In this document: piece by piece, positions 2,449 to 18,239 of the stretch
Numbering within the stretch: the first letter of the stretch is position 1
Layout: each line of letters opens with the position of its first letter
DNA from: Candidatus Bathyarchaeota archaeon
GTDB taxonomy: Archaea; Thermoproteota; Bathyarchaeia; 40CM-2-53-6
Reading direction: 5' to 3'
Assembly: GCA_963706285.1 (NCBI GenBank)
Contig: CAVPLU010000001.1
Coordinates: forward strand, 1 to 18,239
DNA length: 18,239 nt
Translations under genes and position numbers: made by a program
Notes under the pieces: generated by a model
The model's database searches: none
What the model was told of the DNA's origin: nothing
Seen by the model: only the letters and a program-made list of their open reading frames with translations

Positions 2449-4392
2449 TTATCTTTGGGAGAGCCCGGCTCTTTTCTTAAAGCCGGCCATTAGCGTTTCG
2501 GCAGCCTTTCTAATCTCATCGATGGACGCCTCATCTTCTATTGTCGAGTAGTCTCCCAAGGCTTGTCCCGTTATCACGGCTTTGATGAGGCGTCGCATGA
2601 TCTTCCCGCTTCTTGTCTTTGGAAGCATATCGACGAAGTCGATATCATCGACCACAACGATTTTGCCGAGTGATTTCTGAACAAGTTGCCTGAGATCCTT
2701 TCGCAATTCCTCGTTCGGGTAGTAACCAGCCTTGAGGACGACGAACGCTGCTGCGACCTCTCCTCTCACAGGGTCGGGTTTTCCTACTACGGCTGCCTCT
2801 GCGACTGAAGGGTGACCGACGAGGGTGCTCTCTATCTCGATCGTACCGATGCGGTGGCTTGCTATCTTGATGACTTCATCCATTCTGCCGAGGAACCAGA
2901 TGTATCCGTCCTCATCTCTCAGCGCGGCGTCCCCAGTGTAGTAGCAGCGTGGGATCCGTTCCCAGTAGTCCTTAACGTATCGATCATGATCCTTCCAGAG
3001 AGTCGGCGTTAGACCGGGAAAGGGACGCAGACAAACAAATGTTCCTTTCGCGTTCACGGGAAGCGACTCCCCTCTTTCGTTCACTATGTCTGCTTCGATT
3101 CCGGGCAGTGGTATTGTTGCTGAGCCGGGCTTGATTGGCAGCATAGCGATGCCCACTGGGTTTCCGACCATCGGACCGCTGCTCTCGGTCTGCCACATAT
3201 GATCGATCACCGGCACCTTATCCTTCAGCACAGTCTGCTGCAACCACTTCCAAGCTGCAGGATTCAGAACCTCGCCTGCGCACACGACGAGGTTGATTGA
3301 ACTGAGATCATATTTGGCGGGATACTCGTCACCGAACTTCATCAGGCCTCTAACGCCCGTTGGGGACATCCACATTTTGCTCACTCGGTGCTTCTCCGCG
3401 ATGCGCCACCAGACATCCGGCGTCGGATAGTCCGGAACGCCCTCGTACATGACGGTCGTGCAGCCGAAGAGTAGTGGTGCATAGATGACGTAGCTGTGAC
3501 CGACGATCCATCCGATGTCCGAGGTTGACCACCAGATGTCTTGATCACTCATTTTGTAGACCCATCTGCCCATGGCATGGATGTAGACTTGGTAACTGCC
3601 GTGAGGTTGAACCGTTCCCTTTGGCTTGGCCGTAGTGCCTGAAGTGTGAAGAATGAACGCCAGCTCGTTCGACTCCACAGAAACATAATCGCTCTTCGCG
3701 GACTTGCCAGCGTCGAGCGCTTCCTCCCAATACAGGTCTCTTCCGTTCTTCATCTGCGGGTTCTTTGGGCCTCTCTTGAGCACCACAACCTTCTCAATCG
3801 GGTTGGGTGTCTGAAGCGCCTCATCGACAACCTCTTTCAGGTTGACCTCTTTTCCTCGCCTGAACCCGACATCCGATGTAACTAGAATCTTAGAGCCCGC
3901 ATCAACAACCCGTTCCCCCAGAGCAACAGATCCGAAACCCCCGAAGACTACAGAATGAATGGCACCGATCCTAGTGGATGCGAGAATCGCTACGACCGCT
4001 TCCGGAACCATCGGCATGTAGATAGTGACTCGGTCACCTTTCTCCACACCTAGCGCTCGCAAAGCTGCTGCGAACTTCTTCACCTGATCGAACAGTTGAC
4101 TGTATGTGAGCGTTCTGCTTTCGCCGGTCTCGCCTGATTCCCAGATTATTGACGCCTTGTCTCCTCTTCCTTTGTGGAGAACGTGATAGTCCACTGCATT
4201 GTAGGAGATGTTGGTTAGGCCTCCAACGAACCACTTGAAGTCAGGATACTTCCACTCGAAAACCCGGTCCCAAGGTTTGAACCAATGAAGTTCACGGGCA
4301 GCGTCCCCCCAGAAGCCTTCCGTATCTTCTAGTGCACGTTCAAGCATCTTTCTCAGATGGAGCGGATACTCGATCCTCTGCTCTCCACCCAT
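2449..4392 (-). CDS. acs: acetate--CoA ligase (AMP-forming acetyl-CoA synthetase)
   Basis: HSVVFGGF, P-loop HTSGTTAKPKG, DIGWIVGHSY, WQTE, YYTGD, GRMDEVIK and PKTRSGKIMRR (catalytic Lys). A purine-rich GGGGTGGAG lies upstream of the ATG. Confidence 0.92.
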   Translation of the reverse strand: MGGEQRIEYPLHLRKMLERALEDTEGFWGDAARELHWFKPWDRVFEWKYPDFKWFVGGLTNISYNAVDYHVLHKGRGDKASIIWESGETGESRTLTYSQLFDQVKKFAAALRALGVEKGDRVTIYMPMVPEAVVAILASTRIGAIHSVVFGGFGSVALGERVVDAGSKILVTSDVGFRRGKEVNLKEVVDEALQTPNPIEKVVVLKRGPKNPQMKNGRDLYWEEALDAGKSAKSDYVSVESNELAFILHTSGTTAKPKGTVQPHGSYQVYIHAMGRWVYKMSDQDIWWSTSDIGWIVGHSYVIYAPLLFGCTTVMYEGVPDYPTPDVWWRIAEKHRVSKMWMSPTGVRGLMKFGDEYPAKYDLSSINLVVCAGEVLNPAAWKWLQQTVLKDKVPVIDHMWQTESSGPMVGNPVGIAMLPIKPGSATIPLPGIEADIVNERGESLPVNAKGTFVCLRPFPGLTPTLWKDHDRYVKDYWERIPRCYYTGDAALRDEDGYIWFLGRMDEVIKIASHRIGTIEIESTLVGHPSVAEAAVVGKPDPVRGEVAAAFVVLKAGYYPNEELRKDLRQLVQKSLGKIVVVDDIDFVDMLPKTRSGKIMRRLIKAVITGQALGDYSTIEDEASIDEIRKAAETLMAGFKKRAGLSQR

Positions 4393-4436
4393 AACTCCAC
4401 CCCTCAGGACACGTGAACGCGAACATTAGCATACGC

Positions 4437-4477
4437 TAAAAAAGCTTCGATGAAGCGTCGCCTCGAAACGCTAAATA
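4437..4477. promoter_or_regulatory. putative back-to-back archaeal promoters of the divergent acyl-CoA synthetase pair
   Basis: CTAAATA at 4471-4477 lies about 35 nt before ATG 4512. TTTTTTA on the minus strand at 4443-4437 lies about 45 nt before ATG 4392. A GCTTC-gat-GAAGC inverted repeat sits between them. Confidence 0.35.
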
Positions 4478-4511
4478 CTCCACGACACAGCCCTCGAATA
4501 CTAGATACGCA

Positions 4512-6443
4512 ATGTCGATCGTCTGGAAGCCCACAAGCCAGTACGTCGACAATAGCAACATGAAGAGGCTCATGCAGAAGCATAACATACGTACGCTTGA
4601 CGAGCTAACGAAACGCTCCATAAATGATATTGAATGGTTCTGGGACGCGTGCGATAAAGACCTCAATATTGAGTGGTTCAAACCATATGAGAAGATCCTC
4701 GATACCTCCAAAGGTATTGAGTGGGCTCGCTGGTTCATCGGAGGAAAACTCAACATCACACACAACTGCGTCGACCGGCACTCAGAGACGAGAAAAGAGA
4801 AGACTGCCATAATCTGGCAAGGTGAAGATGGAGAAGTCAACAAGCTCTCTTACGGAGCTCTCTGTGAGGAAGTTAACCGGTTCGCAAACGGCCTAAAGAG
4901 TCTGAACGTACGCAAGGGCGATGCTATTGGACTCTACATGCCAATGTCTCTACAAGTGCCGATTTCGATGTTCGCCGCATTCAAACTCGGCGCAATTTGC
5001 GTCCCGATCTTCTCAGGATTTGGAGCCTCGGCCGTTGCGTCAAGGCTCAATGATGTTCAGGCAAAGATCCTTGTCACATCTGATGGGACACTAAGGAAAG
5101 GCAAGAATCTGAAAGTCAAGAATGAGGCAGATGCTGCAGCCGATCTGGTCAAGAGCATCAAGCACGTTGTGGTCACCAAGCGACTTAACATCGAGGTGCC
5201 TTGGTCAAGCGCTCGCGATATTTGGTGGGATGACTTAATCAAAGACCAGCCTAGAGAATGCGAAACAGCCCACCTGGATTCTGAGGATGTATCCTTAGTT
5301 CTCTACAGCTCGGGAACCACCGGTAAACCAAAAGGGACTGTACACACCCACGCCGGGCCGCTGATTGAATGCACGAAAGATGTTGGATATCATTTTGACA
5401 CAAAAGAGGATGATGTCTTCTTCTGGGTCACGGACATAGGCTGGATGATGGGGCCGTGGATGCTTATCGGTGCGTTGAATCTCGCAAGCACCGTCCTCCT
5501 CTTCGAAGGCGCATTCGACTACCCACGCCCAGATAGACTGTGGAGGATCATTGAGGACTTCAAGGTGACAATCTTCGGAATCTCCCCCACCCTCGTTAGG
5601 TTGCTGATGAAATATGGAGATCAACATCTAGCAAGTCGCGATCTCTCAAGCCTTAGAATACTGGGATCCACCGGCGAGCCCTGGGATCCTGAATCATGGA
5701 CTTGGTTCTTCGAGAAGATCGGCGCATCAAGATGCCCAATCATCAACATATCAGGCGGCACCGAACTGATCGCGCCTCATCTCACACCATCCCCCCTCTC
5801 GCCACTGAAACCCTGCACCGTAGGAGGACCGGGCTTGGGAATGGATGTCGATGTCTTCAATGAGAAAGGAGAATCAGTACGAGGAGAGGTCGGCTACCTT
5901 GTCATGAAGAAGCCATGCCCGTCGATGACAAAGGGATTCTGGAACGATCCGCAAAGATACATCGAAACCTATTGGTCCCGATGGCCCAATATTTGGTATC
6001 ACGCTGACTGGGCACTCGTGGACAATGATGGTTTCTGGTTTGTACTTGGAAGAGCGGACGACACGATCAAAGTGTCGGGAAGACGCGTTGGACCAGCAGA
6101 GGTTGAATCCGCGCTCATGGAACACCCGAGCGTATCCGAGGCCGCGGCTATCGGCGTGCCTGATGAAGTGAAAGGCGAAGAGGTGACCTGTTTCGTGGTT
6201 CTCAAACGTAACGTCGAAATGAGCGAGAATCTCCGGGAAGCGCTCAAGGATCAGGTGGCGCGAGTCATGGGCAAAACCTTCAGACCAAGAGATGTGCGAT
6301 TCGTTCGGCAACTCCCAAAGACACGTTCAGGCAAAGTTGTGAGGAGACTGATCAGATCTCGGGTCCTTGGCAAGGCAGAGCTGGGAGATCTCTCAACACT
6401 GGACAACCCTGAAGCTCTTGATGAAATCGCGAAAGCTACGTGA
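4512..6443 (+). CDS. AMP-forming acyl-CoA synthetase (Acs paralog, acetoacetate/longer-chain-type pocket)
   Basis: YSSGTTGKPKG, DIGWMMG, GSTGEP, NISGGTE (replacing DTWWQTE), WYHAD, GRADDTIKVSG and PKTRSGKVVRR; 643 aa. Confidence 0.9.
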   Translation: MSIVWKPTSQYVDNSNMKRLMQKHNIRTLDELTKRSINDIEWFWDACDKDLNIEWFKPYEKILDTSKGIEWARWFIGGKLNITHNCVDRHSETRKEKTAIIWQGEDGEVNKLSYGALCEEVNRFANGLKSLNVRKGDAIGLYMPMSLQVPISMFAAFKLGAICVPIFSGFGASAVASRLNDVQAKILVTSDGTLRKGKNLKVKNEADAAADLVKSIKHVVVTKRLNIEVPWSSARDIWWDDLIKDQPRECETAHLDSEDVSLVLYSSGTTGKPKGTVHTHAGPLIECTKDVGYHFDTKEDDVFFWVTDIGWMMGPWMLIGALNLASTVLLFEGAFDYPRPDRLWRIIEDFKVTIFGISPTLVRLLMKYGDQHLASRDLSSLRILGSTGEPWDPESWTWFFEKIGASRCPIINISGGTELIAPHLTPSPLSPLKPCTVGGPGLGMDVDVFNEKGESVRGEVGYLVMKKPCPSMTKGFWNDPQRYIETYWSRWPNIWYHADWALVDNDGFWFVLGRADDTIKVSGRRVGPAEVESALMEHPSVSEAAAIGVPDEVKGEEVTCFVVLKRNVEMSENLREALKDQVARVMGKTFRPRDVRFVRQLPKTRSGKVVRRLIRSRVLGKAELGDLSTLDNPEALDEIAKAT

Positions 6444-6486
6444 ATGCCAACAATATGGCACTCGAGCGGTAGCCGAGACTTCAATT

Positions 6487-7615
6487 CTAGAGAGCGTTAA
6501 GCTCTGAAACAAGCTTGTCAATCTCACCTTCTGTGTTATAGAAGTGGGGCGAGATCCTTAACCCACCGCCTCTGACGGACACGACGACCCCGCGTTGCAG
6601 AAGGCGTTGAACAAGAGATTCGGGATCACGACAAGCCAAGCTTACAATACCTGATCTTGACGATTCTTCAAGCGAGCTTTTCACTTGCACACTCGTGTTC
6701 CGCTTCAGCCCATCGACCATACGGTCGACAAGAGAAAGAATCCTAGTTCGTACCGTGTCAATGCCCACTTCTTCTAGTAGCGCAATCGACTCTTTCATTC
6801 CTGCGAAACCTGGGAAATTCAGCTGACCACCTTCATACCTGCGGGCAGTGTACGCTGGCTGGAATTCTCTGAAATTGAACTCCATCGAATTCTCATCTGC
6901 TCGGTAGCCAACAATCGTTGGCCACAGCTCTTCAAAAAGCGCCTGTCTGACGTACAGGAAGCCCGTTGCGATCGGCGACAGCAACCACTTGTATCCACTC
7001 GTCGCGAGAAAATCAACTCCAAGCTCAGATATGTCAACCGGCATTTGGCCGAGAGCCTGCACTGCGTCTGTAACAACATATGCGTTGTTCTCGTGTGCGA
7101 CCCTTGAGAGCTCTTTGAGGTCTATCTTGAACCCGTTCGAGTATTGAACATAAGATATAGCTACGACTTTTGTCTTTGCATCGATTGCCGTGACAAAATC
7201 ATCCATTTCTAGTCTGCCATCACGGTTTCGCACCACTTTCAGTTGCAGACCGTAGCGCCTAGCGAGCGCTTGCCAAGGGAAGAGATTCGACGTGAACTCT
7301 AAGTCGCAAGTGACTATGTTCTGACCTTTCGTCGTATGATAGCCCATTACCAACAATTGCCAAGCCTTCTGATGTATTGTGGACTAGGGCGATTTCCTCG
7401 TCCTTTGCTCTGACTAGGGACGCGATCGACTTTCGAGTCGCCTCAGCAGCATCCTCCCACGATCCCCAATGCAAATCCCCCTCGGACTTTTCTTCTACAA
7501 CGCGTCTGGACGCCTCTATCGCTCTGGTTGGTAGTGGTCCAACAGCTGCATGGTCGAAGTACGCATACCTATTTGTGACAGGAAATTCTGAGCGAATTCG
7601 ATCGATATCCAACAC
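6487..7615 (-). CDS. class V PLP-dependent aminotransferase-fold enzyme, split by a +1 frameshift near 7330
   Basis: ORF 7259..7615 gives IRSEFP..YFDHAAVGP..NTSEGL. ORF 6487..7356 gives GQNIVTCDLEF, DAVQALG, SGYKWLL (PLP Lys), RRYEGG and LRISPHFYN. Removing one base near GACGAAAGGT joins them into about 375 aa. Confidence 0.88.
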
Positions 7616-8017
7616 GAGTCTCCGTCCAAGCTAGAATGGATACCACGCGATTTAACTCTGAACTCCAAAGAAATCCAATCTTTCCACATAGAGGTTCTTG
7701 GCGAGAAGTCTCAAAGCGGCACCTCTTTCCCGGAAGGCGGCACCTCTTTGGAGGATGGGAGTCGATTCGAACCTTCTGAATAGATTATGGCTCCTGATTC
7801 CCGTGCCGAGTTGCGCTCTTCTATGAAGTTGTTGAAGCACAAAACCCTAGGGGCCTAGCGCTTCACTCGTTTCTCTGCGTTCACTTCTGGCTGGGATGGT
7901 CGTGCACCACCAGCCTAAACACCATAGAAAGGCTGCAAAGAGATACGGCTTAACTTCGAAAGAGGAGGTGGACGTACCATACAAGAGGTAGACGAACACG
8001 TGCATCAGATATTGGGT

Positions 8018-8116
8018 CTAGTTATCGCGTTTCCACGGCTTCACTGCAACGATTGCGAGCACAGCCAGTCCTAGGGCCAAGAATAGCGCGAAAACAGCGA
8101 GTTTGTTGACTCGCAT
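8018..8116 (-). CDS. putative small single-pass membrane protein (32 aa)
   Basis: MRVNKLAVFALFLALGLAVLAIVAVKPWKRDN is a clean hydrophobic helix flanked by basic residues. The ATG at 8116 is preferred over the upstream start at 8212. Confidence 0.4.
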   Translation of the reverse strand: MRVNKLAVFALFLALGLAVLAIVAVKPWKRDN

Positions 8117-8238
8117 CACGTCGCCGTCAACAGGGACGCTAGTAGTGTAGGCGCTGGGTTTACGTAGGCCCGGATAATGCGTGGTAGCTGTCGAATGAGG
8201 CATAAAGCTCAACTCATAGCACTAGTGATTGTGAGAAC

Positions 8239-8679
8239 ATGGATTCCACTCCTACGTTGGATGACGCAATTCTCCTTGCTGCACAGAAGCATCATGGCCA
8301 GAAGGACCTGGCCGGGGCGCCATACGTAATGCACGCGCTCCGAGTCATGTTTCGCCTAAGACAAAACGACGAACGGGTCGTCGCTGTCCTACACGACCTT
8401 GTCGAAGAAACAGATGTGACTCTCGAACAGTTGAAGGAACTCGGATACCCAGATCAAATCGTCGAAGCCGTCGATCATCTGACTTGGCGTAAAGGCAAGG
8501 AATCCTATGATCAGTACATTAAGAGACTGAAGTTGAACCCGCTCGCGATAAGCGTGAAAAAGGAAGATGTCAAGGATCACTTGGCACCCGACTATGATGG
8601 GAGCGTAGGTTGGCTGGAAGAGAACCGCCAGGACCTCTACGAAAGATATCGGAAAGTCCTGATGGAGTTGTACGAATAA
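8239..8679 (+). CDS. stand-alone HD-domain hydrolase, RelA/SpoT hydrolase-like (small alarmone hydrolase/Mesh1-like)
   Basis: H-x-GQ-x-D-x-AG-x-PY-xx-H-x-LRV, AVLHDLVE, AVDHLT, ESYDQYI and VKKED match the RelA/SpoT-type HD hydrolase layout; 146 aa, no synthetase domain. Confidence 0.85.
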   Translation: MDSTPTLDDAILLAAQKHHGQKDLAGAPYVMHALRVMFRLRQNDERVVAVLHDLVEETDVTLEQLKELGYPDQIVEAVDHLTWRKGKESYDQYIKRLKLNPLAISVKKEDVKDHLAPDYDGSVGWLEENRQDLYERYRKVLMELYE

Positions 8680-8924
8680 CCTCCTGACGGAAACGTAACA
8701 TGAGCCATGTCTAGGAAAGCGGATCTGTTTCACTACAGAGTGTACTTCGCTAGGGATCTCCAGCCTCTCTCAGCCCTAAATGAGAGCGAGTATGATTGGC
8801 AGAAACATTGGAAAATGGCGAAATTGACGCCTAAGAAACCCTGAAAGCCGAGCCGTTTAACTTTCGGAAACCTCCTCGCTCATAGGCTAAGGGGCGCAAA
8901 GTTCCGAAACCAACGGGGAAAAGC

Positions 8925-10379
8925 ATGACCTTCGCAGCTGCGAGACCCAGGACTACTTCAGGATACAAGTGGACAGTTCTTCTAATAACCACTATTGGCT
9001 CGTTTATGGCGCCGTTTGACGGCAGCATAGTGACGATAGCCATCCCTTCGATTGCGTCTTCGATGATGATAGGACTCGAAACCGTCGTCTGGATATCTCT
9101 GGCCTACCTACTTGTCCTGACAGTGCTTCTCATCAACGCGGGAAGGCTTGCTGATCTTAGAGGAAGGAAGCGCATCTACATCGCCGGCTTCATCATCTTC
9201 ACGGCGGGATCCGCTTTATGTGGAGCATCCGCAACAGGGATTCAACTCGTATTTTTCCGGGCGCTGCAAGGCATCGGTGCAGCATTCATCGCTGCCAACA
9301 GTCCAGCAATCGTGACCGAGTCGTTTCAAAGCTGGGAGCGAGGCAAAGCGTTGGGAATCAATGCGATGGCAGTCTATACCGGATTGACTACTGGTCCAGT
9401 CATCGGCGGCATTCTAGTTCAAAGCTTCGGCTGGAGATCGATCTTCTATGTCAACGTCCCGATCGGAATCCTAGTCGTTGGTCTAGCCTCAATCAGACTG
9501 AAGGAGAGGAAGATCCCGTTGGTGGACGAGGGATTCGATTTCGCTGGAGCCGTGACACTCTCAGCGGCGTTAGCTTCACTTCTAGTAGCCTTGACGCTCG
9601 GAGGCAGCTTTGGGTGGAATTCTATCTCTACCGTGTCACTTCTCGTGCTAGCGGTCAGCGCGTTTCTCCTGTTCATTTACGCGGAACGCAGAATGACTCG
9701 ACATCCAACCTTGGATCTTTCACTCTTCACAAAGAACCGTTTGTTTGCTGCCGCCAATACTGCAGCGCTTCTCAACTACACCGCTATCAGTGGAGTGACT
9801 TTTATGATTTCGATCTACCTGCAAGATATTCAAGGATTTCAGCCTGAAAGCGCAGGCTTGTTCCTGATCGCCATGTCTGTTGCGATGGCACTTCTCTCTC
9901 CCATCAGCGGTTGGTTAGCAGACAGATTCGGCTCAAGATCACTGAGTACGGTGGGCATGGTCATCGTAACGGGCGGCCTGCTATTGCTTTCGCAATTGAA
10001 TACGGAATCCTCAGCTAGCGACGTCGTCTTGAGACTGACTTTGCTTGGAATTGGATTTGGCTTGTTCTCTTCGCCAAATACGCGTGCCATCATGAACTCA
10101 GTGGATAAGAGCAAGCTTGGCGTGGCTTCGGGAACCCTCAGCACGATGAGATCGACAGGACAGTCAATTGGGCTTGCCATGGTAGGCGCCATCATTGCAG
10201 CCTCATTACCTCCGCAGGTAATGCTTCAACTCTTCACGGGCCTGATGACTCAGAGCACCGCTGCCGGAAACGACTTCATCGTCGGAATGAGCAGGTTCTT
10301 CCTAGTTGCATCAGGAATGAGCGCGGTTGGTACGGTTGCATCTCTGGTAAGAGGACGAGAGTTACTCGAGGGACCATAG
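8925..10379 (+). CDS. MFS transporter, DHA2 (EmrB/QacA-like, about 14 TMS)
   Basis: DGSIVTIAIPSI, motif A GRLADLRGRKR, RALQGIG, GPVIGG, WRSIFYVNVPIG, LDLSLF and GWLADRFGSR. Confidence 0.93.
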   Translation: MTFAAARPRTTSGYKWTVLLITTIGSFMAPFDGSIVTIAIPSIASSMMIGLETVVWISLAYLLVLTVLLINAGRLADLRGRKRIYIAGFIIFTAGSALCGASATGIQLVFFRALQGIGAAFIAANSPAIVTESFQSWERGKALGINAMAVYTGLTTGPVIGGILVQSFGWRSIFYVNVPIGILVVGLASIRLKERKIPLVDEGFDFAGAVTLSAALASLLVALTLGGSFGWNSISTVSLLVLAVSAFLLFIYAERRMTRHPTLDLSLFTKNRLFAAANTAALLNYTAISGVTFMISIYLQDIQGFQPESAGLFLIAMSVAMALLSPISGWLADRFGSRSLSTVGMVIVTGGLLLLSQLNTESSASDVVLRLTLLGIGFGLFSSPNTRAIMNSVDKSKLGVASGTLSTMRSTGQSIGLAMVGAIIAASLPPQVMLQLFTGLMTQSTAAGNDFIVGMSRFFLVASGMSAVGTVASLVRGRELLEGP

Positions 10380-10431
10380 GAAGAACAGGATTATTTGTTC
10401 AGCGGAAGCTAACTTCCGACAGCCGCGTCCG

Positions 10432-11046
10432 TCAAGACATAGGTTCTGTTGGCGGCAGTTCTTCCAAGCGGAAGTACTCGGCAAATGAGTCTGCTCTAGC
10501 CTTCCATTCTACCGGCAATGCATCCTTGTCGACTGTGCGCATCAATTCATAGAAAAATGTCTTGAGCGTACACGGAATCACCCCGGCTTGATACATACGT
10601 TCCAAGGCGGGTCGAACGCGATGTTCAGAAGTGAATGTACAATCTTCTAGGAGGAATACTTGCAGACCCATACTCATCAGGCCTAATGACGACTGCAGGA
10701 TGCACACATCGGTCTCCGCGCCTGCAACCACGACCTGCGAGATCTGAAGCCCTCTAATCGCCTCACGCACAACATCGTCAGAACAACAATTGAATGTTCG
10801 CTTCACAAATCTCTGCCCATGCGATGGAAAAACCTTCTCAAGGCGTTCCGGAAGCCAGCCCTTGACTTCGATGGGGTGCTCGAACGTAGCGATGAGTGGC
10901 AATCTGATCCAATCGGCTAGCATTAGTAAGCGCTCAACGCGCATAAGTATCGGCTCTTTCGAGCCGTGCATGGAATTCCAGAAGTATGGCTGAGCATCTA
11001 TCAGCAGGAGACCAACGCTGCCCGGATCAATAGCGGAGGCGGACAT
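10432..11046 (-). CDS. isochorismatase (cysteine hydrolase) family protein
   Basis: LLLIDAQ, KRTFNC and VVVAGAETDVCILQS supply the Asp-Lys-Cys triad, followed by V(F)LLEDC. Confidence 0.9.
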   Translation of the reverse strand: MSASAIDPGSVGLLLIDAQPYFWNSMHGSKEPILMRVERLLMLADWIRLPLIATFEHPIEVKGWLPERLEKVFPSHGQRFVKRTFNCCSDDVVREAIRGLQISQVVVAGAETDVCILQSSLGLMSMGLQVFLLEDCTFTSEHRVRPALERMYQAGVIPCTLKTFFYELMRTVDKDALPVEWKARADSFAEYFRLEELPPTEPMS

Positions 11047-11317
11047 GTTTCGTCTCTATTGAGTAATCTCGCTGTGCAAGATATTGCTGCTGATCATAGA
11101 AGATGATTCCATTTTCCGACTTGATGCGGCGATCGGAAAAATAACCCTACCAGAAGGACGTCTATCGATGTAGCAAGAGACGGCTGCTTGAGAATCTCTC
11201 TAGTGATCATTCCACACGAGCTCTTCTCGATATGAGCTGGGAATGACTCGCAACTGTCGATAAGATGAGAATCATTTATCAAGGATAGAGAGCGACTGAT
11301 CTAGTAGGCGAACGCTC

Positions 11318-11680
11318 ATGGCTAGAGTTGGATATTTCGAGGGAACCGATCCTCTTCTCCTAGCGAAACTTGCGTCTGAAGGAATTGAGACGCTGCCCGT
11401 CGCCAACACGTGGGACGGCCATGGAAAGTATGTGAACCACCTTAGCAAGGGCGAAGTCAACGTGGTAGTTGGGTACATGCACAAGGTCGTGCCAGCAGAG
11501 CGGGAAGGAACGAAAGCAACCGACCTGCTGTTCGCATGCATGAACTTCGACATACCTGTCGTGCTTATCGTGCCGGCGTCGCACCGAGACAAAGCCAAGA
11601 AGATGTTGGGCGATGTTGGAGCAAACGTTCACTTCACCGCTCCTGAGGAGCTTGAAGCCGAGATCAGAAAGTACTTGTAG
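11318..11680 (+). CDS. hypothetical protein (small alpha/beta fold)
   Basis: 120-aa ORF with ATG start, protein-like alternating beta/alpha pattern (RVGYF, VNVVVGY, IPVVLIVP) and an AT-rich TTTATC about 40 nt upstream. It does not overlap any better-supported gene. Confidence 0.8.
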   Translation: MARVGYFEGTDPLLLAKLASEGIETLPVANTWDGHGKYVNHLSKGEVNVVVGYMHKVVPAEREGTKATDLLFACMNFDIPVVLIVPASHRDKAKKMLGDVGANVHFTAPEELEAEIRKYL

Positions 11681-11968
11681 GATGTAGCAGAAGAACCGCG
11701 CCTTGCACTCGACGGTCCGAGTCAGAGATCTGCGGTCGCGAAGAGTTTTCGATAGGTCTACAAGGAGTCGAATTCTGAATCATTGAGCTCTCCTTCCGAG
11801 CTACTCTGGAAGCTCAGTCACGAGATGCGATTGCATCCTGATCCAGAATGGTAGAGTCTCTGTGGAACTCGTTTGGAATAAGACATGCCTAGAGAATAGG
11901 CGGATTAGGTGCCAGTATGTGGGCAGAGCACCCACACTGGCTATCTCGGATGCCGTGCGCTAGCTTCG

Positions 11969-12526
11969 CTACTGCTTAGCGCCGCACTTTGGACAGAAAC
12001 CGGGGCGTCCTAACAATTCGGCCCCACAGTTTGTACAGAACGTCTTGGCCTGAGGAGGTGGAGGGATTGGTGGCGCCTGCATGGGCATGGGAATGGAAGG
12101 TGACTGTGAAGGTTTGATGACAACGGTTTTCGCGAGGCGGTCACCGAGTCTTTGTTTCTTGTCTGATCTTGACATGAGGATTATTCCGATTATGTATAGG
12201 AATGGTAGCCCGTCGATAATTCGAAGCAGATTTCTCACGACGGACGGAACAAGGCCGCATGGTGAGCCGTCTTCTTGCACGACTTTGATTTTTGTGACCA
12301 TCTTACCGACCGTTGCCCCGAAGAAGCCCTCAAGCACGATGAAGTACAGTAGGAACACTAGTCCATAGGCACCCATGAAGCCAAGCGCCGCAAGACCGAA
12401 AACATTGAAAGTGAAGGCGCCGAACGCGGCTGCACCTAGCACGAAGTATAGGATCATGAGGACTATTCCGTCAATTATCTGCGCGACGAGTCTAGGCCCG
12501 ATCCCTTGATAATTCAAACTTGCCAT
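11969..12526 (-). CDS. RDD family membrane protein with Pro-rich linker and C-terminal zinc ribbon
   Basis: YQGIGPRLVAQIID, GATVGKMVTKIKVV, RNLLRIID and KQRLGDRLAKTVVI, then PPIPPPP and FCTNCG..FCPKCG. ATG at 12526; alternative TTG start at 12538. Confidence 0.92.
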   Translation of the reverse strand: MASLNYQGIGPRLVAQIIDGIVLMILYFVLGAAAFGAFTFNVFGLAALGFMGAYGLVFLLYFIVLEGFFGATVGKMVTKIKVVQEDGSPCGLVPSVVRNLLRIIDGLPFLYIIGIILMSRSDKKQRLGDRLAKTVVIKPSQSPSIPMPMQAPPIPPPPQAKTFCTNCGAELLGRPGFCPKCGAKQ

Positions 12527-12967
12527 AACGATACTCAATCCTACTTGAAGTCTAGAGATATCTTGAATCTATATTAGCCCTTCCACAACGCGAACGCATA
12601 AAGGGAAATCGGATGCATCTACAGCTGAAGGCCTCACATGCGGACAGGGCAGCGTCGCCTCAGCCCGATTAGGGGAAAGGATTGTGCCTGTCACCAACCT
12701 CCAAGATCCCAATTTCCGATCTCGTCGTAGAAAGTATGGACATCGAGTCCGAGGCATAGCACAGCTGGCTATAGGGACATACGGCACAAGTGAAGCTTGA
12801 CCCGATCAAGTCAACTACCACACATATTGTTAGCGATGGAACGGGGCCAAGCAACCAGCACTAGTTCGCATGCCTCACATGCTATTGAGACGTTAGGGGA
12901 GTTGACCATCCTTTCAACCTGTTTTTCTGCGACCCAATGATTCCATGGATTCTGTCTGACGAGATAT

Positions 12968-13502
12968 TCAGATCGCGCTATTTTGCATCCACCCAGCGGG
13001 CATCCAATCCTTCACTTCTGGGTCAAAGACCCACCTTGGCTTCCCTGCAAATTGTGTACTTTGCCTTCGAAGATAATAGAACAACTCCACAGCTGCTCCA
13101 AGATGCCCAGCTGGGGCTTGAAATCCCTGCTGATCCTCCCTACTCATCCTCTCACGAATAACCGGGCATTTCACGGAAGCATTCCAATTCGCTCCGGTCC
13201 TCGATCTAGACTTGTACTCGAATGGAAAAGCTCGGCACATCAGAGGGCTATCATCGTATACTGTGCACTGATTGACATTGCTCAGGTAAGGACAGACCTT
13301 AGCGTTGAGCTGGTAGGATAGCACATCTTGCGTCTGATCGCACCCGACAGCGAGTACTGGAGAAACCGAGATTCATAGGAAAAAGGTTGGTTTCCTCTTC
13401 TCTCAGGAACAAACCGTTCAGATAGCCGCCGGAGGAATACTCTCCTAGGTCTGTACAGCACTTGCCGCATTTCCTGCAGGAAAACCGGTATTCGCGATTC
13501 AG
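12968..13502 (-). pseudogene. YkgJ-like CxxCxxCC cysteine-cluster (zinc/iron-chelating) protein, frameshifted
   Basis: A frame not in the ORF track reads YRFSCRKCGKCCTDLGE..LFLREEETNLFPMNL. It shifts near 13367 into ORF 12968..13324 (CPYLSNVNQCTVYDDSPLMCRAFPF..KCP). The only candidate start is CTG at 13502, 9 nt after GGAGG. Confidence 0.75.
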
Positions 13503-14072
13503 TGGAAAGAGCCTCCGCTCTGACCTCTTCTACGCCACAAAGAGAAATCAGTTCGATCACAATCCTCCACAATTCGGTTTCCGCCTCCCCTCAGACAGAG
13601 AAAAACCAGCGGATCTCAATCTTCCATTAATTCGAGCGCGTTCGCTATCCTGCGAAGCTCTGACAAGGACTAGAGAAAACTCTACCCGAAACAGTTGTTC
13701 CCCTCCATACAGTCCAAACGAGAATCCTTGTCACCAAATGTACGATCTGGAACTATCCAGTCCACCCCAGAATAGATTCACCACAACCATCAAGCCTACG
13801 CATTTGACTTCTTAACCCTTAACCAGTTGGACAGCAACCAATCAGCAAGTCAAAGATGCCTCCAAGTTACCCGGGGAACAAGTCGGCCACGATCTCTCTG
13901 CCAGTCAGTATCGTACACGAATCAAAACGATGCGGTCTCAACATCAGCAGAAGCAGCCAGAACGCGTCAAGCGATACAATTTTCAGGCCAAGCGGGTCTT
14001 GCCGTTCACAGAAGTATTCTGCTAGAAGTAGTGTGGCGGGCCCGCAGGGATTCGAACCCTGGACCCCAGGCT

Positions 14073-14088
14073 TTCCTCACCGGTTGTT
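14073..14088 (-). other. tRNA-Arg intron 37/38 (16 nt)
   Basis: Central helix CUUC/GAGG, bulges GG^A and AA^A, inner pairs AC/GU. Confidence 0.9.
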
Positions 14089-14096
14089 CCGAAGGC

Positions 14097-14114
14097 CTAC
14101 ACCGAAGCGTACGA
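14097..14114 (-). other. tRNA-Arg intron 29/30 (18 nt)
   Basis: Strict BHB: outer helix AGG/CCU, central helix ACAC/GUGU, bulges AG^U and AG^G, inner pairs CG/CG. Confidence 0.9.
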
Positions 14115-14131
14115 CTGTGTCCTAATCCTGG

Positions 14132-14171
14132 TTATCCGCACCTTTTCGTTAGCCATGAACGATCAGGTGCC
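14132..14171 (-). other. tRNA-Arg D-loop intron 15/16 (40 nt)
   Basis: Stem GCACCT/AGGTGC, central helix GUCU/GGAU, bulges AG^G and AA^C. The exon-side outer helix is absent (relaxed motif). Removal gives the typical archaeal Arg D-loop AGCCAGGA. Confidence 0.85.
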
Positions 14172-14436
14172 CTAGACTACGGGCCCGACACTAGAGAGAC
14201 TACCTAGTCTTTTCACCCTTCCGTTTTCCTATCTCAAGGCTATAGACTTCACCTCAGTCACCAACTTGATGGGGCGATCCTCATCACGATAATCGGTTTG
14301 TCCGCAGGTTAAGCGTCTGCCATGTGCTGCCAGACCGCTATTCTGTTCCGACTCTTGTTCACTAATCACAGGCACGCCGGCTATTCGAAGTAATAGAAAT
14401 CGCGTGCATCGGAGCATCTACTATACTGAGATTCAC

Positions 14437-14967
14437 TCACTGCGTCACGAACGCCTTGGCAGCCAAGTCAAGCCGCATAAACACCTTCAGAAGCTTGTCC
14501 ACGCTTCGTTGAACCGGTGTTGTCATGTGGCCTCTTGTTGAACCGATTTGGATCCCAACCAAGATTGTGTAGACGGGTAGACCGCGTTCTTGTGCAATCA
14601 TTCTTATGATCGACGCCACCAATGACAAAGGGAACTTGTGACTTGCTAGAGATGAGGATGAACGGTCGAGGGATGGAAGTTCGTCCAATACTACTGCGCC
14701 GGGTCTAAGAGAGCGATGTACGGCGTTTACGAATATTATGAGGTTAGGTTCAACCCTGACAGCTTCCTCCATGCAATCCTGAGGACTAGTTCCGCAATCC
14801 AACAATCTCAATCTGACTACTTTGCCTGTCAGCCTACGGAATAGGGCTTGACCTACTCCGTCGTCACCCCTAACAGGATTACCCACACAGACAATGAGCG
14901 CTCTGCTGCCCTTCGTGAAATGAACTAACTTGCTTTCCAGGGCAGACCAAGTCATCTCCAGCATCAT
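14437..14967 (-). CDS. hydrogenase maturation endopeptidase (HycI/HybD family)
   Basis: IVCVGNPVRGDDGVG, LLDCGTSP, IIFVNA, SHKFPL and LVGIQ. The ATG at 14967 overlaps the upstream stop (ATGA); the ORF-track extension to 15090 overlaps the upstream gene and is unlikely. Confidence 0.88.
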   Translation of the reverse strand: MMLEMTWSALESKLVHFTKGSRALIVCVGNPVRGDDGVGQALFRRLTGKVVRLRLLDCGTSPQDCMEEAVRVEPNLIIFVNAVHRSLRPGAVVLDELPSLDRSSSSLASHKFPLSLVASIIRMIAQERGLPVYTILVGIQIGSTRGHMTTPVQRSVDKLLKVFMRLDLAAKAFVTQ

Positions 14968-15851
14968 CGTGACACTTGAGCGGCCTGGGGGGCAGGGATA
15001 GCATAGATCTTGTTGGCATATGAAAGGAGGGCTTTGTACATGTCGACGAAGTTGAATGAGAACGGGCAGACTCCCGCACATAGACCACACAAGGTACAGA
15101 CTGTTGTCTGCTCAGCGATCGATTTAATTTCGCCAGCCGCAAGCGATCCAGTCGCGACCATCCTGAAGTATTTTCTCAGCTTGAGGACAGGCGCTTCAAC
15201 TCTAGCTCCGTCCATTGCTTCATAGAGCGGGCATACCTCGACGCATCTTCCGCAACGTCCGCATGCATCACTGAATGTCAAGAATATGGCCTCTTTTCTT
15301 CCAGGGCTGAGAGTCCTCCACATTACGGTTGCCAATGCGTGCCTCACGGCCCCACCTACGAAGAGTGACACAACAATCCAAGCGTATATGATCGTGACGT
15401 GAATGCTTGCAGCCCAAGTCAACGGATACGCCGTGAAACTGTTGACCTGCATCAATCCAAAGACCGCGAGCGCCTGCAGTGTGCCGGTAATCGCGATTGC
15501 TAACATGAAAGCTAGATCCAAAAAGAATATTCTACCATAAGCCAACCTGAAATATCGGTTCATGAAGTATTTTGCAACAAATCCTGCTCCACCAACCACC
15601 AGAAGCACGCCAGTAACTCCATGCGACCATGATATCAGCCAACCAAGGCCGCCGAATATGCCAGCGAAACCTGGCACAAAGTTTGAGATCTCTGTTATTG
15701 CTCCTGTAATGATGCTTCCATAGAGTCCGATGTGAAATATGTAGTCAGCCATGCCTACGATTACTGATCTATTGAAGAGCAACGCCAGCAACCCTGGCTT
15801 CGATAAATCAAAAGAGGAAAGCCTGTACCGTTTCGTTTCAGGCGTAGGCAA
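14964..15851 (-). CDS. NarI/HdrE-like cytochrome b membrane domain fused to C-terminal HdrC-like 2x[4Fe-4S] domain
   Basis: At least four clear hydrophobic helices carry four His residues (FHIGLYG, SHGVTG, IHVTII, RHAL), followed by CGRCGRCVEVCP and CTLCGLCAGVCP. The probable start is TTG 15851, 10 nt after GGAGG and 2 nt after the upstream stop; the ORF track starts at 15929. Confidence 0.8.
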   Translation of the reverse strand: MPTPETKRYRLSSFDLSKPGLLALLFNRSVIVGMADYIFHIGLYGSIITGAITEISNFVPGFAGIFGGLGWLISWSHGVTGVLLVVGGAGFVAKYFMNRYFRLAYGRIFFLDLAFMLAIAITGTLQALAVFGLMQVNSFTAYPLTWAASIHVTIIYAWIVVSLFVGGAVRHALATVMWRTLSPGRKEAIFLTFSDACGRCGRCVEVCPLYEAMDGARVEAPVLKLRKYFRMVATGSLAAGEIKSIAEQTTVCTLCGLCAGVCPFSFNFVDMYKALLSYANKIYAIPAPQAAQVSR

Positions 15852-15853
15852 CT

Positions 15854-16702
15854 CTACGAAGCCTCCTTCAACCGCCCTTTCCTCCATTTCGAAATGTAAA
15901 GCACCGTCCCAAGAGCCACAGGCACCCACGCTAACCTAGAATACTTCAACATGTCAGCGATCCACCTCGAGGCGGAAGGATACCTATTCTTGACGACTGT
16001 AACATCAGCGCTGTCAAGGAACGTTTCAAATTGTTTCCTAGAAAGAACGTACAGTGTACTTGTCTCTCCCGCGTAGAGCAAGACGCCGTTCGTCTTCTCT
16101 GCAAGCTCCATTCCTTCACTCAGCTTATCATCATACAATCCAAAGGACCTAGTCTTCGTAGGACAAACCTCAACACAGCTTGGACTCATACCCTTCTCTA
16201 TTCTCATATAGCACATGTCACACTTGCTAATCTTCTTCTCAATCGGATCGAATGTAATTGACTGGAATGGACATTGATTCACGCAGAGAAGACAACCAAT
16301 ACACTTGCTCCGATCGTAAACTACAGGTCCATAATCAAGCTGAGTAATCGCATGAGTGATACAGGCGCTGGCGCAAGGAGCATCAACACAATGCAAACAG
16401 AGCTGCGGCATAGGCGCCGTATCAGCAGACGATTGAACTAGTGCCACCTTAGTGTAGACGCTCCCCGTCGCAGACAAACCCTGGAATTCCTTATGGTAAG
16501 CTTCGCATCCAGCAACACACTTCATACAACCAATACAATTCCCAACATTCACGAGAATAGAATACTTCGGCTTCGACGCAAACGCCGAAGCAAAACCAGC
16601 ATTCCCAACAAGAAAGAGGAGAGTCCCTCCTGCTGCCGAAGACCTCAGAAAACTCCTCCTCGTAAGCGACCCCATTGACTCCATCAAGGTTTTGCCAGGC
16701 AT
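15854..16702 (-). CDS. Tat-signal 4x[4Fe-4S] electron-transfer subunit (HybA/NrfC/DmsB-like) with C-terminal membrane anchor
   Basis: Twin-arginine motif TRRSFL, hydrophobic h-region and ASA/AFA site. It has 16 Cys in CIGCMKCVAGC, CLHCVDAPCASAC, CIGCLLCVNQCP and CDMC..CVEVCP, and a C-terminal hydrophobic stretch LAWVPVALGTVLYI followed by basic residues. Confidence 0.9.
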   Translation of the reverse strand: MPGKTLMESMGSLTRRSFLRSSAAGGTLLFLVGNAGFASAFASKPKYSILVNVGNCIGCMKCVAGCEAYHKEFQGLSATGSVYTKVALVQSSADTAPMPQLCLHCVDAPCASACITHAITQLDYGPVVYDRSKCIGCLLCVNQCPFQSITFDPIEKKISKCDMCYMRIEKGMSPSCVEVCPTKTRSFGLYDDKLSEGMELAEKTNGVLLYAGETSTLYVLSRKQFETFLDSADVTVVKNRYPSASRWIADMLKYSRLAWVPVALGTVLYISKWRKGRLKEAS

Positions 16703-16707
16703 TTTGC

Positions 16708-18128
16708 TTACTTCCTCCTGCGTATTTCTTTCACAACTTCGCCTTCAGTGTCTCTGATCTCGACAACGAGTGAATCATCTAGGTGTGTTGAACATGAGAT
16801 GCATGGATCGTATGCTCTGATGGCTAGGCCCACCTCGTGCCAAAGTCGATCTTCGTCGATGTTGCCTTTGGATATCGACCTTTGGGCAACGGCCTTCATT
16901 GACAGATCGATAGGATAGGAGTTTGTGGTTGTCGGCACGATGAGATTTGCCTTGGTGATGTATCCGTTCTGATCCCATGCGTAGTGATGTATGAGTAGGC
17001 CACGCGGAGCTTCAACAGTGCTGATACCTTCTCCCTCCTTGATCTTCCATGGGGTCTTGGTGTTTGAGTCTGTGATCCCGGGCTTTGCAGTAGCTGTTCA
17101 GCACGTTCAACCGCGAACGCCAAGCACACGTATCTGGCCAGATGATACGACATTGTCAGGTTAGAGGGAGCGCCGAATTTCGTCTTGAATTCTCTCACGA
17201 GAGAGTTGGCGAAGTCTGTCGAAGCGCCTCTTGACACGTTCACCCGCGAAAGTGCGCCAACTCTCAAGATACCTTCTGTCATGCCTTGAGATCTAAGAAA
17301 GACACGCTTAGCGTAGGAGTAGTCTACGGTTCTCTCAAGAAGATTGCTCAGATATTCGCTTGGACCAAATTCCGTCATGATCCTGTCGGATTCGTTGACG
17401 ACTCTGCATTTGCCGTCGTACAATTCGAGGTGGTCATTCTTGATTAAACCCAGGTAGTTTGTCTTGAGGAAAGCCAGATCTTTGTAGGACTCCACTGACT
17501 TCTCCAGTATCGGCGTGACTATCGTATCATACCATCCGAAGATTCTCTTCTTCACATCCTGAACACGCGTCAGGAGCTTGTCTGCATCCGATCTGGAGAG
17601 ACTCCTGTTGATCCCACCCGGGATTGCAGTCATCGGATGCGTGGATTGAACGCCTAGGAGGGATATGATCTCCTGCCCGACCGATCGTACCTTAACAACT
17701 TCCTTAACAACTTCTGGGAACTTCTTGTAGAGTTCGAATATGCCGCGACTGGATTCTGGAAGTTCTGAAAGGAGAATGTCGGGACCAGCGAGCACAAATA
17801 TGTGGAGAGTATGATCTCCGATGAACTCTCCCAGTAGCATAAGTTCTCTGAGCTTGGCCGCGGCTGGCGGAATCTCGATGCCCAGACCTAGATCGAGCGC
17901 CTTTGCCGATGCCAAGTGGTGAGGAACAGGACAGACGCCGCAGATCCTTGTCGTTATGATCGGTGCCTTGTAGAGGAGCCTCCCAACAAGGAACTTCTCG
18001 AATCCTCTGAATTCAAGTATGTTAGCGTGAGCTTCCTCAACTTCTCCGTCTTGATCTAGACCTACAGAGACTTTCAGACAACCCTCGATGCGGGCGATCG
18101 GCCCTACATCCACCACTCTTCGGCTCAT
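16708..18128 (-). CDS. [NiFe]-hydrogenase large subunit, group 3c/3d-like (MvhA/HoxH-like), split by a one-base deletion near 17080
   Basis: RIEG, FRGFEKFL.GR, L1 motif RICGVCPVPHH, HTLHIFVLAGPD and HP..AIPGG. After the shift at CCCGGG (17077-17082) it reads EGEGISTVEAPRGLLIHHY..ANLIVPTTTN and L2 motif RAYDPCISCSTH plus a 24-aa cleavable extension. The ATG at 18128 gives about 473 aa when repaired. Confidence 0.93.
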
Positions 18129-18239
18129 CTGGCTCGCCCTCTCGGAGTGAAGTTGTTCAGCACCGCCTCGAGTCCGCTTCGAACAACCGTCAAAGGCGGC
18201 GGGACAACCAGGAATCACAAAATCAACCTTCACATACTC
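18125..18239 (-). CDS. [NiFe]-hydrogenase small subunit, C-terminal end (partial; short HoxY-like)
   Basis: EYVKVDFVIPGCP. Removing one base in the run at 18201-18203 gives GCPPPLTVVRSGLEAVLNNFTPRGRAR*, whose TGA overlaps the large-subunit ATG (ATGA). Confidence 0.8.

Follow-up and report, generated by a model that had tools for sequence, protein, structure and literature searches.

Organization of the Hydrogenase Gene Cluster

The H2 metabolism of an organism is commonly deduced from the classes of hydrogenase encoded in its genome. This article describes a [NiFe]-hydrogenase gene cluster of the archaeal genome bin G000 whose products probably form one complex across the cell membrane, with the hydrogenase inside the cell, a heme wire through the membrane and an iron-sulfur (Fe-S) protein on the outer face, a layout absent from the standard hydrogenase classes. 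The DNA analyzed, referred to here as the window, is the entire 18,239-bp contig C1 of this bin (2.13 Mb, 21 contigs, 89% complete, 7.5% contamination).

The five genes of the cluster are located on the minus strand and run from position 18239 to 14437. The first encodes the [NiFe] small subunit (18125..18239), recognized by its reading frames and by alignment with the small subunits of the family; as the window is the whole contig, only the C-terminal 38 residues of this protein are available and the remainder is unassembled. The missing part was looked for on the other contig ends of G000 and was not found. Next come the [NiFe] large subunit (16708..18128; about 472 residues, L1 motif RICGVCPVPHH, L2 motif DPCISCSTH and a 24-residue C-terminal extension), a 4x[4Fe-4S] protein of the HybA/FdnH/PsrB type (15854..16702; 282 residues, a TRRSFLR motif, 16 cysteines and a C-terminal anchor), a four-helix membrane domain fused to an HdrC-like 2x[4Fe-4S] domain, hereafter the fusion (14964..15851; 295 residues, two CxxCxxCxxxCP motifs), and a HycI-type hydrogenase maturation endopeptidase (14437..14967), assigned by the NCBIfam match of its orthologue in the metagenome contig L115. 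The likely start of the protease, MMLEM at 14967, overlaps the stop codon of the preceding fusion gene in an ATGA. An ATGA overlap also joins the two hydrogenase subunits, and 5 and 2 nucleotides separate the Fe-S protein from the large subunit and from the fusion, respectively. A preliminary description of this DNA had announced five tightly coupled minus-strand genes with ATGA overlaps or gaps of 2-5 nucleotides, and all five were recovered with their junctions read from the sequence.

Both subunit genes carry a frameshift: the small subunit has one extra C in TGTCCCGCC (about 18201-18203, after GC of IPGCPPP), and the large subunit lacks one base in CCCGGG (about 17076-17081). These indels are most likely assembly errors and not marks of pseudogenes, since both sit in C/G homopolymers and since TatC and HypD of the same bin, together with two other hydrogenase loci, are likewise split over reading frames; a cluster of pseudogenes was rejected on the same grounds, as essential genes are split as well. 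No public sequencing run bearing on the frameshifts or on expression was listed. An origin of the contig in another organism was not supported either. Its GC content (0.51) and its tetranucleotide correlation to the large contigs (0.964) are like those of other small contigs, it has an 889-bp repeat, 97% identical, in common with contig C6, and a paralogue of the membrane module described below lies on the 217-kb contig C3. As to host capacity, TatC and HypD are both encoded in G000.

Conserved Linkage and Distribution

The linkage of the hydrogenase with the conduit genes is conserved. All eight examined loci with a large subunit of this family, namely the window, L115, five Nitrososphaeria genomes (L130-L134) and the Anaerolineae genome G1325, also encode the fusion and the exported four-cluster Fe-S protein, the latter either free or fused to the small subunit. 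Whether the HybA-like and cytochrome-type genes accompany this hydrogenase in other genomes had been put forward as a way to test the initial proposal, and the association holds in 8/8 loci, one of them bacterial. At the level of protein searches, 14 pairs of large subunit and fusion come from contigs of equal size. The fusion has 70 relatives by single-sequence search and 66 by profile search, all of them named "ferredoxin," "4Fe-4S dicluster domain-containing protein," "hypothetical" or similar.

L115 (17 kb) is the sole locus retrieved from the scan of metagenome contigs, and its large subunit is 69% identical to that of the window. It encodes, in order, a PsrA/PhsA-like molybdoenzyme with a twin-arginine translocation (Tat) signal, a fusion of a PsrB-like protein with the small subunit, the large subunit, the membrane fusion, the protease and a TorD-like chaperone. 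Farther along the same contig (14847-17182) there are genes for NapG-like and NapH-like Fe-S proteins, the former with a Tat motif, and the beginning of another Tat molybdoenzyme, of the DmsA type. The fusion occurs in 6 of 401 sampled Nitrososphaeria genomes; the five that were read have the gene order of the window (small subunit, large subunit, Fe-S protein, fusion, protease), one of them with frameshifts, and on the flanks of these operons lie genes of the DsrE-like, Se/S-carrier-like and YeeE/YedE kinds. Among 301 sampled Anaerolineae genomes the fusion was found in one, G1325, with the order Fe-S protein, fusion, small subunit and large subunit, followed by hyp genes.

MvhD/Hdr or HoxEFU/NuoEFG-type genes were not found beside the operon in the eight loci, the upstream flank of the window lying beyond the contig end. 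Thus the usual partners, whose presence upstream would have spoken for a conventional enzyme, do not adjoin the large subunit in the seven related loci, and a group 3 coupling module (for F420, NAD(P) or heterodisulfide reductase) was identified neither in the window operon nor in these loci.

The bin also contains a paralogous module that has neither large subunit nor protease (C3:166360-169613, that is, L121:8319-11614, minus strand). It comprises a 515-residue protein with a signal anchor, an outside CxCH domain, a membrane helix and a small-subunit-like domain with altered cysteine motifs, a HybA-like protein 70% identical to that of the window and a fusion 68% identical, in which Gln replaces His151. 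Similar small-subunit-like variants are found elsewhere (P0195, P0199 and P0202). On contig C9 (30877-33275) the outside CxCH domain occurs as a free 382-residue protein that matches no Pfam family, a hint that it could act independently as a redox module; the adjoining gene encodes a 222-residue membrane protein that, judged by its sequence, may be a b-type cytochrome.

The Large Subunit

The large subunit carries both CxxC metal-binding motifs of [NiFe] enzymes (RICGVCPVPHH and DPCISCSTH) and matches the Pfam family NiFeSe_Hases. The motifs quoted in the preliminary description are all present in the window, as FRGFEKFLVGR, RICGVCPVPHH, LHIFVLAGPD and RAYDPCISCSTH. When its first 351 residues were compared with solved structures, the highest scores were obtained with 7t2r_D (259 bits), MvhA 5odc_F (254 bits) and 9sfi_g (246 bits), followed by the NAD-reducing enzyme 5xf9_D (215 bits), while F420-reducing enzymes reached 78-89 bits, sulfhydrogenases 68-69 and group 1 enzymes 53-72. 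The resemblance to MvhA and HoxH that had been read from the motifs is borne out by this comparison, set at 215-259 bits for chains of the 3c and 3d type against 55-72 for group 1. Among the NCBIfam models, VhuA fits best. In a library of 5.8 billion protein clusters the closest relatives are metagenome proteins 65-69% identical, and the next set, about 44-56% identical, includes Conexivisphaerales and Nitrososphaerales records; the database names of these relatives are inconsistent (F420-reducing, F420-non-reducing or NAD-reducing).

A FastTree phylogeny of 163 large subunits (excluding rows below 400 residues and duplicates of the window or L115, and with every fourth row of P0043-P0120) placed the protein inside a clade of 43 rows with support 100; the references included large subunits at most 41% identical, among the matches listed in the profile search of genome contigs. 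In a second tree, calculated with IQ-TREE for 50 rows (LG+C20 PMSF, quick search), the 14 rows of the family form one clade (SH-aLRT 100, stem 0.45), whose sister clade (support 90) has 33 rows. This sister clade holds eight of the nine large subunits with a 3c-like gene context (a VhuG-type small subunit of about 300 residues, in some cases with VhuD or HdrA) and all six with a 3d-like context (a short small subunit with HoxU/NuoG-like neighbors, NuoF-like where the region could be seen); the ninth 3c-context protein (L058) branches below both clades. By these sequence comparisons the large subunit is of group 3 type and not of group 1, and because its clade is separate in the IQ-TREE phylogeny it is nested in neither the sampled 3c nor the sampled 3d subgroup. 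The phylogeny recommended at the outset was thus carried out, and it set the protein in a clade of its own beside large subunits of 3c and 3d context.

The Small Subunit and the Exported Fe-S Protein

The small subunit of the window ends in VDFVIPGCPPPLTVVRSGLEAVLNNFTPRGRAR followed by the stop codon. The six free small subunits of the family have 150-172 residues and begin at the first strand of the fold (e.g., MAAKAKLAIEDCAICGGCE) with in-frame stop codons just upstream in 6/6, and for both reasons they are regarded as devoid of a signal. In the alignment the family proteins end about 20 residues past GCPPP and keep only the four cysteines of the proximal cluster, and the long small subunits in the same alignment have a cysteine-rich C-terminal extension.

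Other members are fused. In L115 a PsrB/DsrO-like four-cluster domain (DsrO is the best NCBIfam match of this Fe-S domain), a membrane helix and the sequence YARKRKRLF precede the small subunit in a protein of 442 residues. A search for the small-subunit domain in 1.84 billion representatives retrieved some proteins in which it is preceded by a single membrane helix, and others in which a signal anchor at the N-terminus, then an outside domain of some 300 residues with a conserved CxCH and a membrane helix come before the small subunit. In every fused form an Arg/Lys run stands directly after the helix and therefore, by the positive-inside rule, the fused small subunits would be cytoplasmic. 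The forms seen in relatives, as judged from their sequences, most likely place the catalytic dimer inside the cell.

The Fe-S protein shows the features of the HybA/FdnH/PsrB four-cluster ferredoxins: four cysteine groups, a twin-arginine motif and a C-terminal membrane anchor, which is followed by KWRKGRLK and aligns with the anchor of Escherichia coli FdnH. It matches Pfam Fer4_11 (E 5e-21) and PsrB (2vpw_B, E 5.5e-24), and its 16 cysteines are invariant or nearly so among homologues. The Pfam TAT_signal score is 17.2 bits, below the cut-off of 22.7 bits, and the twin-arginine motif is present in all six intact hydrogenase-linked homologues. The view of this protein as a Tat-exported HybA-like 4x[4Fe-4S] protein, taken from the preliminary description, is in agreement with these data.

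The Membrane Fusion

Four histidines stand out in the membrane domain of the fusion. H40 (28/28 homologues) is on helix 1, H77 (28/28) on helix 2, and H151 (27/28) and H171 (26/28) are both on helix 4, twenty residues apart, a geometry that suits one putative heme near each membrane face. Positive residues occupy the N-terminus, the loop that joins helices 2 and 3 and the segment following helix 4, and the other two loops are uncharged, a pattern by which both ends of the protein, and with them the ferredoxin domain, would be inside. The HdrC-like domain matches Pfam Fer4_8 and Fer4_17, its two cysteine motifs are set apart by a long linker, and its eight cysteines are invariant or nearly so. 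No CCG partner of this domain was found in the window itself.

The PDB sequence search with the fusion gave matches to the Fe-S motifs only, and the Atlas provided a weak lead to a NarI-family cluster (0.83). An AlphaFold2 model (pLDDT 74.5, pTM 0.72) consists of four long helices followed by a helical Fe-S domain. When it was aligned against 48,161 solved chains, the best match was Mycobacterium smegmatis EtfD (9ojn_A), with Z 13.5, a value near which, by the warning of the tool, chance matches can arise for helical bundles; it has a root-mean-square deviation (rmsd) of 7.7 over 271 aligned residues and covers the whole model. Further matches were NarI (Z 11.0, rmsd 3.8, 136 aligned), the cytochrome b of E. 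coli Hyd-1 (Z 9.6, rmsd 4.9, 136 aligned), the superoxide oxidase CybB (Z 9.4, rmsd 4.2, 151 aligned) and FdnI (Z 7.6, rmsd 5.0, 155 aligned).

EtfD has five transmembrane helices and a single heme b, along with two domains of the [4Fe-4S] type and two of the CCG type. It can be superimposed on a model of HdrDE; about 7 Å separate its last cluster from the heme, and the clusters feed this b-heme. In the genome G705 a distant homologue of the fusion (33% identical) is preceded by a HybA-like protein and followed by an HdrB-like protein with CCG domains. Given this neighbor and the EtfD/HdrDE-like fold, the label "cytochrome b-HdrC fusion" from the preliminary description can be retained. The three genes of G705 lie on one strand (L122, G705:C13:9000-27000, at 6208-12721), and divergent from them are genes for a Tat-signal Fe-S protein and an aldehyde:ferredoxin oxidoreductase; the arrangement points to a tungsten or molybdenum enzyme that is exported and is wired to an Hdr-type site in the cytoplasm.

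Predicted Contact Between the Hydrogenase and the Fusion

The contact between the two modules was addressed by complex prediction with L115 chains, namely the large subunit, the small subunit with its preceding helix (residues 225-442) and the membrane fusion, an alignment being supplied for every chain. The prediction scored 0.79 and the best of three controls 0.47, which supports binding by a mark that is reached by 58 of the 80 solved complexes and by 2 of the 110 mismatched pairs. The docking runs share at least 64% of their contacts, with a pLDDT of at least 71 for the partner. The confident contacts join residues 351-364 and 410-430 of the small subunit, stretches that flank Cys352 and Cys417 of the proximal cluster, to residues 205-213 and 239-284 of the fusion, which include both cluster motifs. 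The predicted interface between the small subunit and the ferredoxin domain is what an electron-transfer pair would need. That the hydrogenase docks on the HdrC-like domain, as was first proposed from the gene content, is hence favored by the model of the three L115 chains.

Proposed Mechanism and Alternatives

The reading preferred here, to which a probability of about 0.62 is assigned, is that the gene products form one membrane-bound complex of a cytoplasmic hydrogenase dimer, a heme wire and an exported Fe-S protein, in which electrons from H2 flow outward, probably to sulfur compounds. Computed support comes from the parts themselves, their conserved linkage, the topology signals and the predicted interface of small subunit and ferredoxin domain; heme binding, the assembled complex and its function are deduced from these.

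In this complex the group-3-like large subunit and the minimal small subunit, with its proximal cluster only, would dock in the cytoplasm on the 2x[4Fe-4S] domain of the fusion, the four conserved histidines would hold two b-hemes, one near each membrane face, and the Tat-exported, tail-anchored 4x[4Fe-4S] protein would sit on the outer face. Electrons would then pass from the NiFe site through the proximal cluster, the two clusters of the fusion, the inner heme, the outer heme and four further clusters to an outside partner. H2 would be oxidized inside and its electrons pushed out to low-potential acceptors, probably sulfur compounds, and by standard redox-loop bookkeeping this flow would spend proton-motive force at two charges per H2. 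Such a "reverse redox loop" would enable a reduction that is nearly isopotential to proceed. Electrons can probably pass the wire in either direction, and opposite flow, making proton-motive force, may apply where the outside partner is a dehydrogenase.

Outward flow is favored because the nearest relative, L115, carries a PsrA/PhsA-like enzyme, because genes of the sulfur-trafficking type flank the Nitrososphaeria operons, and because the reduction of thiosulfate or polysulfide by H2 is near isopotential, so that the membrane potential would help. There are precedents for a reduction driven in this way. In Salmonella PhsABC the reduction is driven by proton-motive force. For EMO, a heme-based reverse redox loop driven by proton-motive force is reported.

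Several observations weigh against this reading. On the side of the fusion, the first 188 residues match no Pfam family at E values up to 10 in seven of seven members, hhalign of the membrane domain against E. coli FdnI and NarI gave a probability of about 1%, and Foldseek against the PDB placed EtfD first at E 0.58 with nothing at E ≤ 0.001; the alignment score of EtfD falls under the warning on helical bundles given above, and EtfD is unlike the fusion in having one heme and five helices. The docking employed L115 stand-ins (large subunit 69% identical) with alignments made for this analysis and three chains, a setting unlike that of the calibration, and its score may profit from likeness to solved Mvh or Hox complexes; the membrane helix of the small subunit is not among the confident contacts. 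The N-terminus of the small subunit of the window lies beyond the contig end and could carry a signal or anchor. With respect to energetics, outward flow from cytoplasmic H2 wastes proton-motive force and is of doubtful benefit, and the Nitrososphaeria genome G1129 has Tat-signal CoxS/L/M-like dehydrogenase genes upstream, which suits inward flow. In addition, the paralogue of G000 that has no large subunit implies that the conduit can exist without a hydrogenase. Lastly, the distribution of the family is patchy, since the relatives of G000 have neither the fusion nor a close large subunit: the fusion was found in 0/40 genomes of its genus, family and order, and no large subunit more than 43% identical was found in these 40 genomes. 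In its class, one further genome of 400 passed E 1e-85, and this one has a long VhuG-type small subunit in a 3c context.

The alternative that survives best, although it is considered improbable, keeps the same topology with electrons flowing inward, from an outside dehydrogenase of CO, aldehyde or formate through the hemes to H2 inside, in a quinone-free loop that makes proton-motive force. Inward electrons build membrane potential by the logic of redox loops, as occurs in FdnGHI, and the HydDB table titles group 3 "cofactor-coupled bidirectional." The gene context offers Tat-signal CoxS-like together with CoxL- and CoxM-like genes directly upstream of the operon in G1129, and the conduit of G705 beside a Tat-signal Fe-S protein and an aldehyde:ferredoxin oxidoreductase. 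Against it, these neighboring dehydrogenase genes occur in single genomes and may be coincidental, the closest relative has a PsrA/PhsA-like enzyme of a family known as reductases, and proton reduction would demand a donor far below the sum of the H+/H2 potential and the membrane potential, a condition within reach only when H2 is very scarce. One and the same module may operate in either direction.

A wider form of the preferred reading, which is entertained as a doubtful possibility, is that an unclassified lineage of [NiFe]-hydrogenases, found in archaea and some bacteria, forms a quinone-independent transmembrane redox loop with the dimer inside and interchangeable modules outside (PsrA-like, CoxSLM-like or Ig-like CxCH). 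Equally tentative is the corollary that, depending on the module, this loop would either spend membrane energy on low-potential acceptors or make it by proton reduction inside. The CoxS-like 2Fe-2S protein of the G1129 locus (L133, G1129:C2, 2718-6712) has a Tat motif and a long Thr/Val-rich linker, and the CoxL-like and CoxM-like genes are also found there, directly upstream of the hydrogenase operon.

A rather remote alternative dispenses with the transmembrane wire: the fusion would be the anchor and quinone reductase of a cytoplasm-facing H2:quinone oxidoreductase, in the way EtfD serves ETF, and the Fe-S protein would be part of another, quinol-linked module. In EtfD, to which the model is structurally closest, electrons run from cytoplasmic clusters over one heme to menaquinone, and the module of Fe-S protein and fusion occurs without the large subunit too. 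However, four histidines, not two, are conserved, at both ends of the helices, the tail anchor of the Fe-S protein aligns with that of FdnH, and the Fe-S protein is a neighbor of the fusion whichever gene order occurs, and in L115 it forms a single protein with the small subunit.

The least probable alternative, also raised in the preliminary description as a group 3 enzyme repurposed for export, is that the Tat signal of the Fe-S protein takes the dimer out of the cell, where it would work in the manner of Hyd-2, the fusion carrying its electrons to a cytoplasmic acceptor; this conventional arrangement would make better energetic sense by generating proton-motive force, hitch-hiking on the Tat signal of a partner is established for hydrogenase large subunits, the cytoplasmic domain of the G705 fusion serves an HdrB-like protein and not a hydrogenase, and the N-terminus of the window small subunit is beyond the contig, but the free small subunits of the family are signal-less, the fused ones come after an outside domain and a single helix whose C-terminal flank is strongly positive, the small subunit has no medial or distal clusters to reach the outside Fe-S protein, the predicted interface joins its proximal-cluster face to the ferredoxin domain after helix 4, and this domain is cytoplasmic in the EtfD/HdrDE fold.

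Relation to Known Systems

By sequence, the nearest large subunits are those of groups 3c (MvhAGD/VhuAGD) and 3d (HoxFUYH and the Acetomicrobium HydABCSL type), which have the L1 and L2 motifs, the C-terminal extension and the protease in common with the window cluster, but the partner in the window family is a membrane heme/Fe-S protein with an exported Fe-S protein. Small subunits in 3c context are VhuG-like, with 301-307 residues (one of 419 residues has an N-terminal extension), and some loci have VhuD or HdrA. The short small subunit of the window family resembles those of 176-193 residues at loci with HoxU/NuoF-type neighbors and is thus common with group 3d, but NuoE/F/G-like genes, present at the 3d-context loci, are absent from the eight loci of the family. 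Group 1, the membrane-bound uptake enzymes (1c Hyb, 1e Isp) whose three-cluster small subunit bears a Tat signal, differs in the small subunit, as 6/6 free small subunits of the family have no N-terminal extension and no C-terminal cluster domain.

EtfD, EMO and HdrDE resemble the fusion in having a heme-b helix bundle followed by a 2x[4Fe-4S] domain, that is, a wire from clusters to heme. In contrast to EtfD, with five helices and one heme, the fusion has four helices, four conserved histidines and no CCG domains, and its cytoplasmic partner would be a hydrogenase, with an exported Fe-S protein at the other end. FdnGHI, PsrABC and Hyd-2 (HybOCAB) likewise have an exported Fer4_11 four-cluster protein with a C-terminal anchor; a quinone site terminates their membrane subunit, and where a hydrogenase takes part it is a Tat-exported group 1 enzyme, whereas the inner end of the proposed wire is a cytoplasmic hydrogenase. 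In the DsrMKJOP, Hme and Tmc complexes of sulfate reducers, an exported Fe-S protein, a cytochrome b and a cytoplasmic HdrC/D-like unit link both sides of the membrane; their cytoplasmic end is a CCG-type disulfide reductase, and the hydrogenases of those organisms act outside.

All parts of the window cluster are of known kinds, and it is their combination that was not found described. The HydDB table defines group 3 as cofactor-coupled bidirectional enzymes with subgroups 3a-3d, and a literature search, to which supplementary tables were out of reach, gave no published description of this layout, in line with the preliminary description, in which the architecture was not recognized among the described hydrogenase subgroups. 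A "group 3e" was proposed for a divergent clade of large subunits beside 3c and 3d, with a small subunit, which in the preprint is given as unique to Anaerolinea and without identified accessory or electron-transfer subunits (bioRxiv 10.1101/2021.08.23.457424, 2021). The window clade is mostly archaeal, and its Anaerolineae member has both partners upstream, unlike "group 3e" as described. Because one Anaerolineae large subunit (P0043) lies inside the window clade, the two may overlap.

If the proposed complex is real, it would be a third link of H2 to the membrane, besides the outward-facing group 1 and the ion-pumping group 4 enzymes, and a compact natural quinone-free wire across the membrane; should the quinone-independent loop hold as well, H2 would be coupled to the membrane by a novel route. 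The present annotation of the large subunits (F420-reducing, F420-non-reducing or NAD-reducing) and of the fusion ("ferredoxin") would give the wrong physiology. The occurrence in Conexivisphaerales-type archaea beside sulfur-trafficking genes bears on the use of H2 by sulfur and iron reducers.

Additional Features of the Window

Between the protease and an RDD-family gene, a segment of 1.9 kb (about 12540-14437) has no family-matched open reading frame and no Rfam match. The RDD-family gene belongs to the 889-bp stretch (11724-12612) that is 97% identical to the end of contig C6, and 283 bp at 13862-14140 are 84% identical to another place in C6. At the contig start (1-84) ARAGORN called a tRNA-Asp with the odd anticodon ATC, which may be truncated or mis-called. 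A class-V aminotransferase gene (6487-7615) appears to be split by a further frameshift. Two divergent genes of the acetyl-CoA-synthetase type (AMP-forming), encoding proteins of 647 and 643 residues, stand side by side at 2449-6443.

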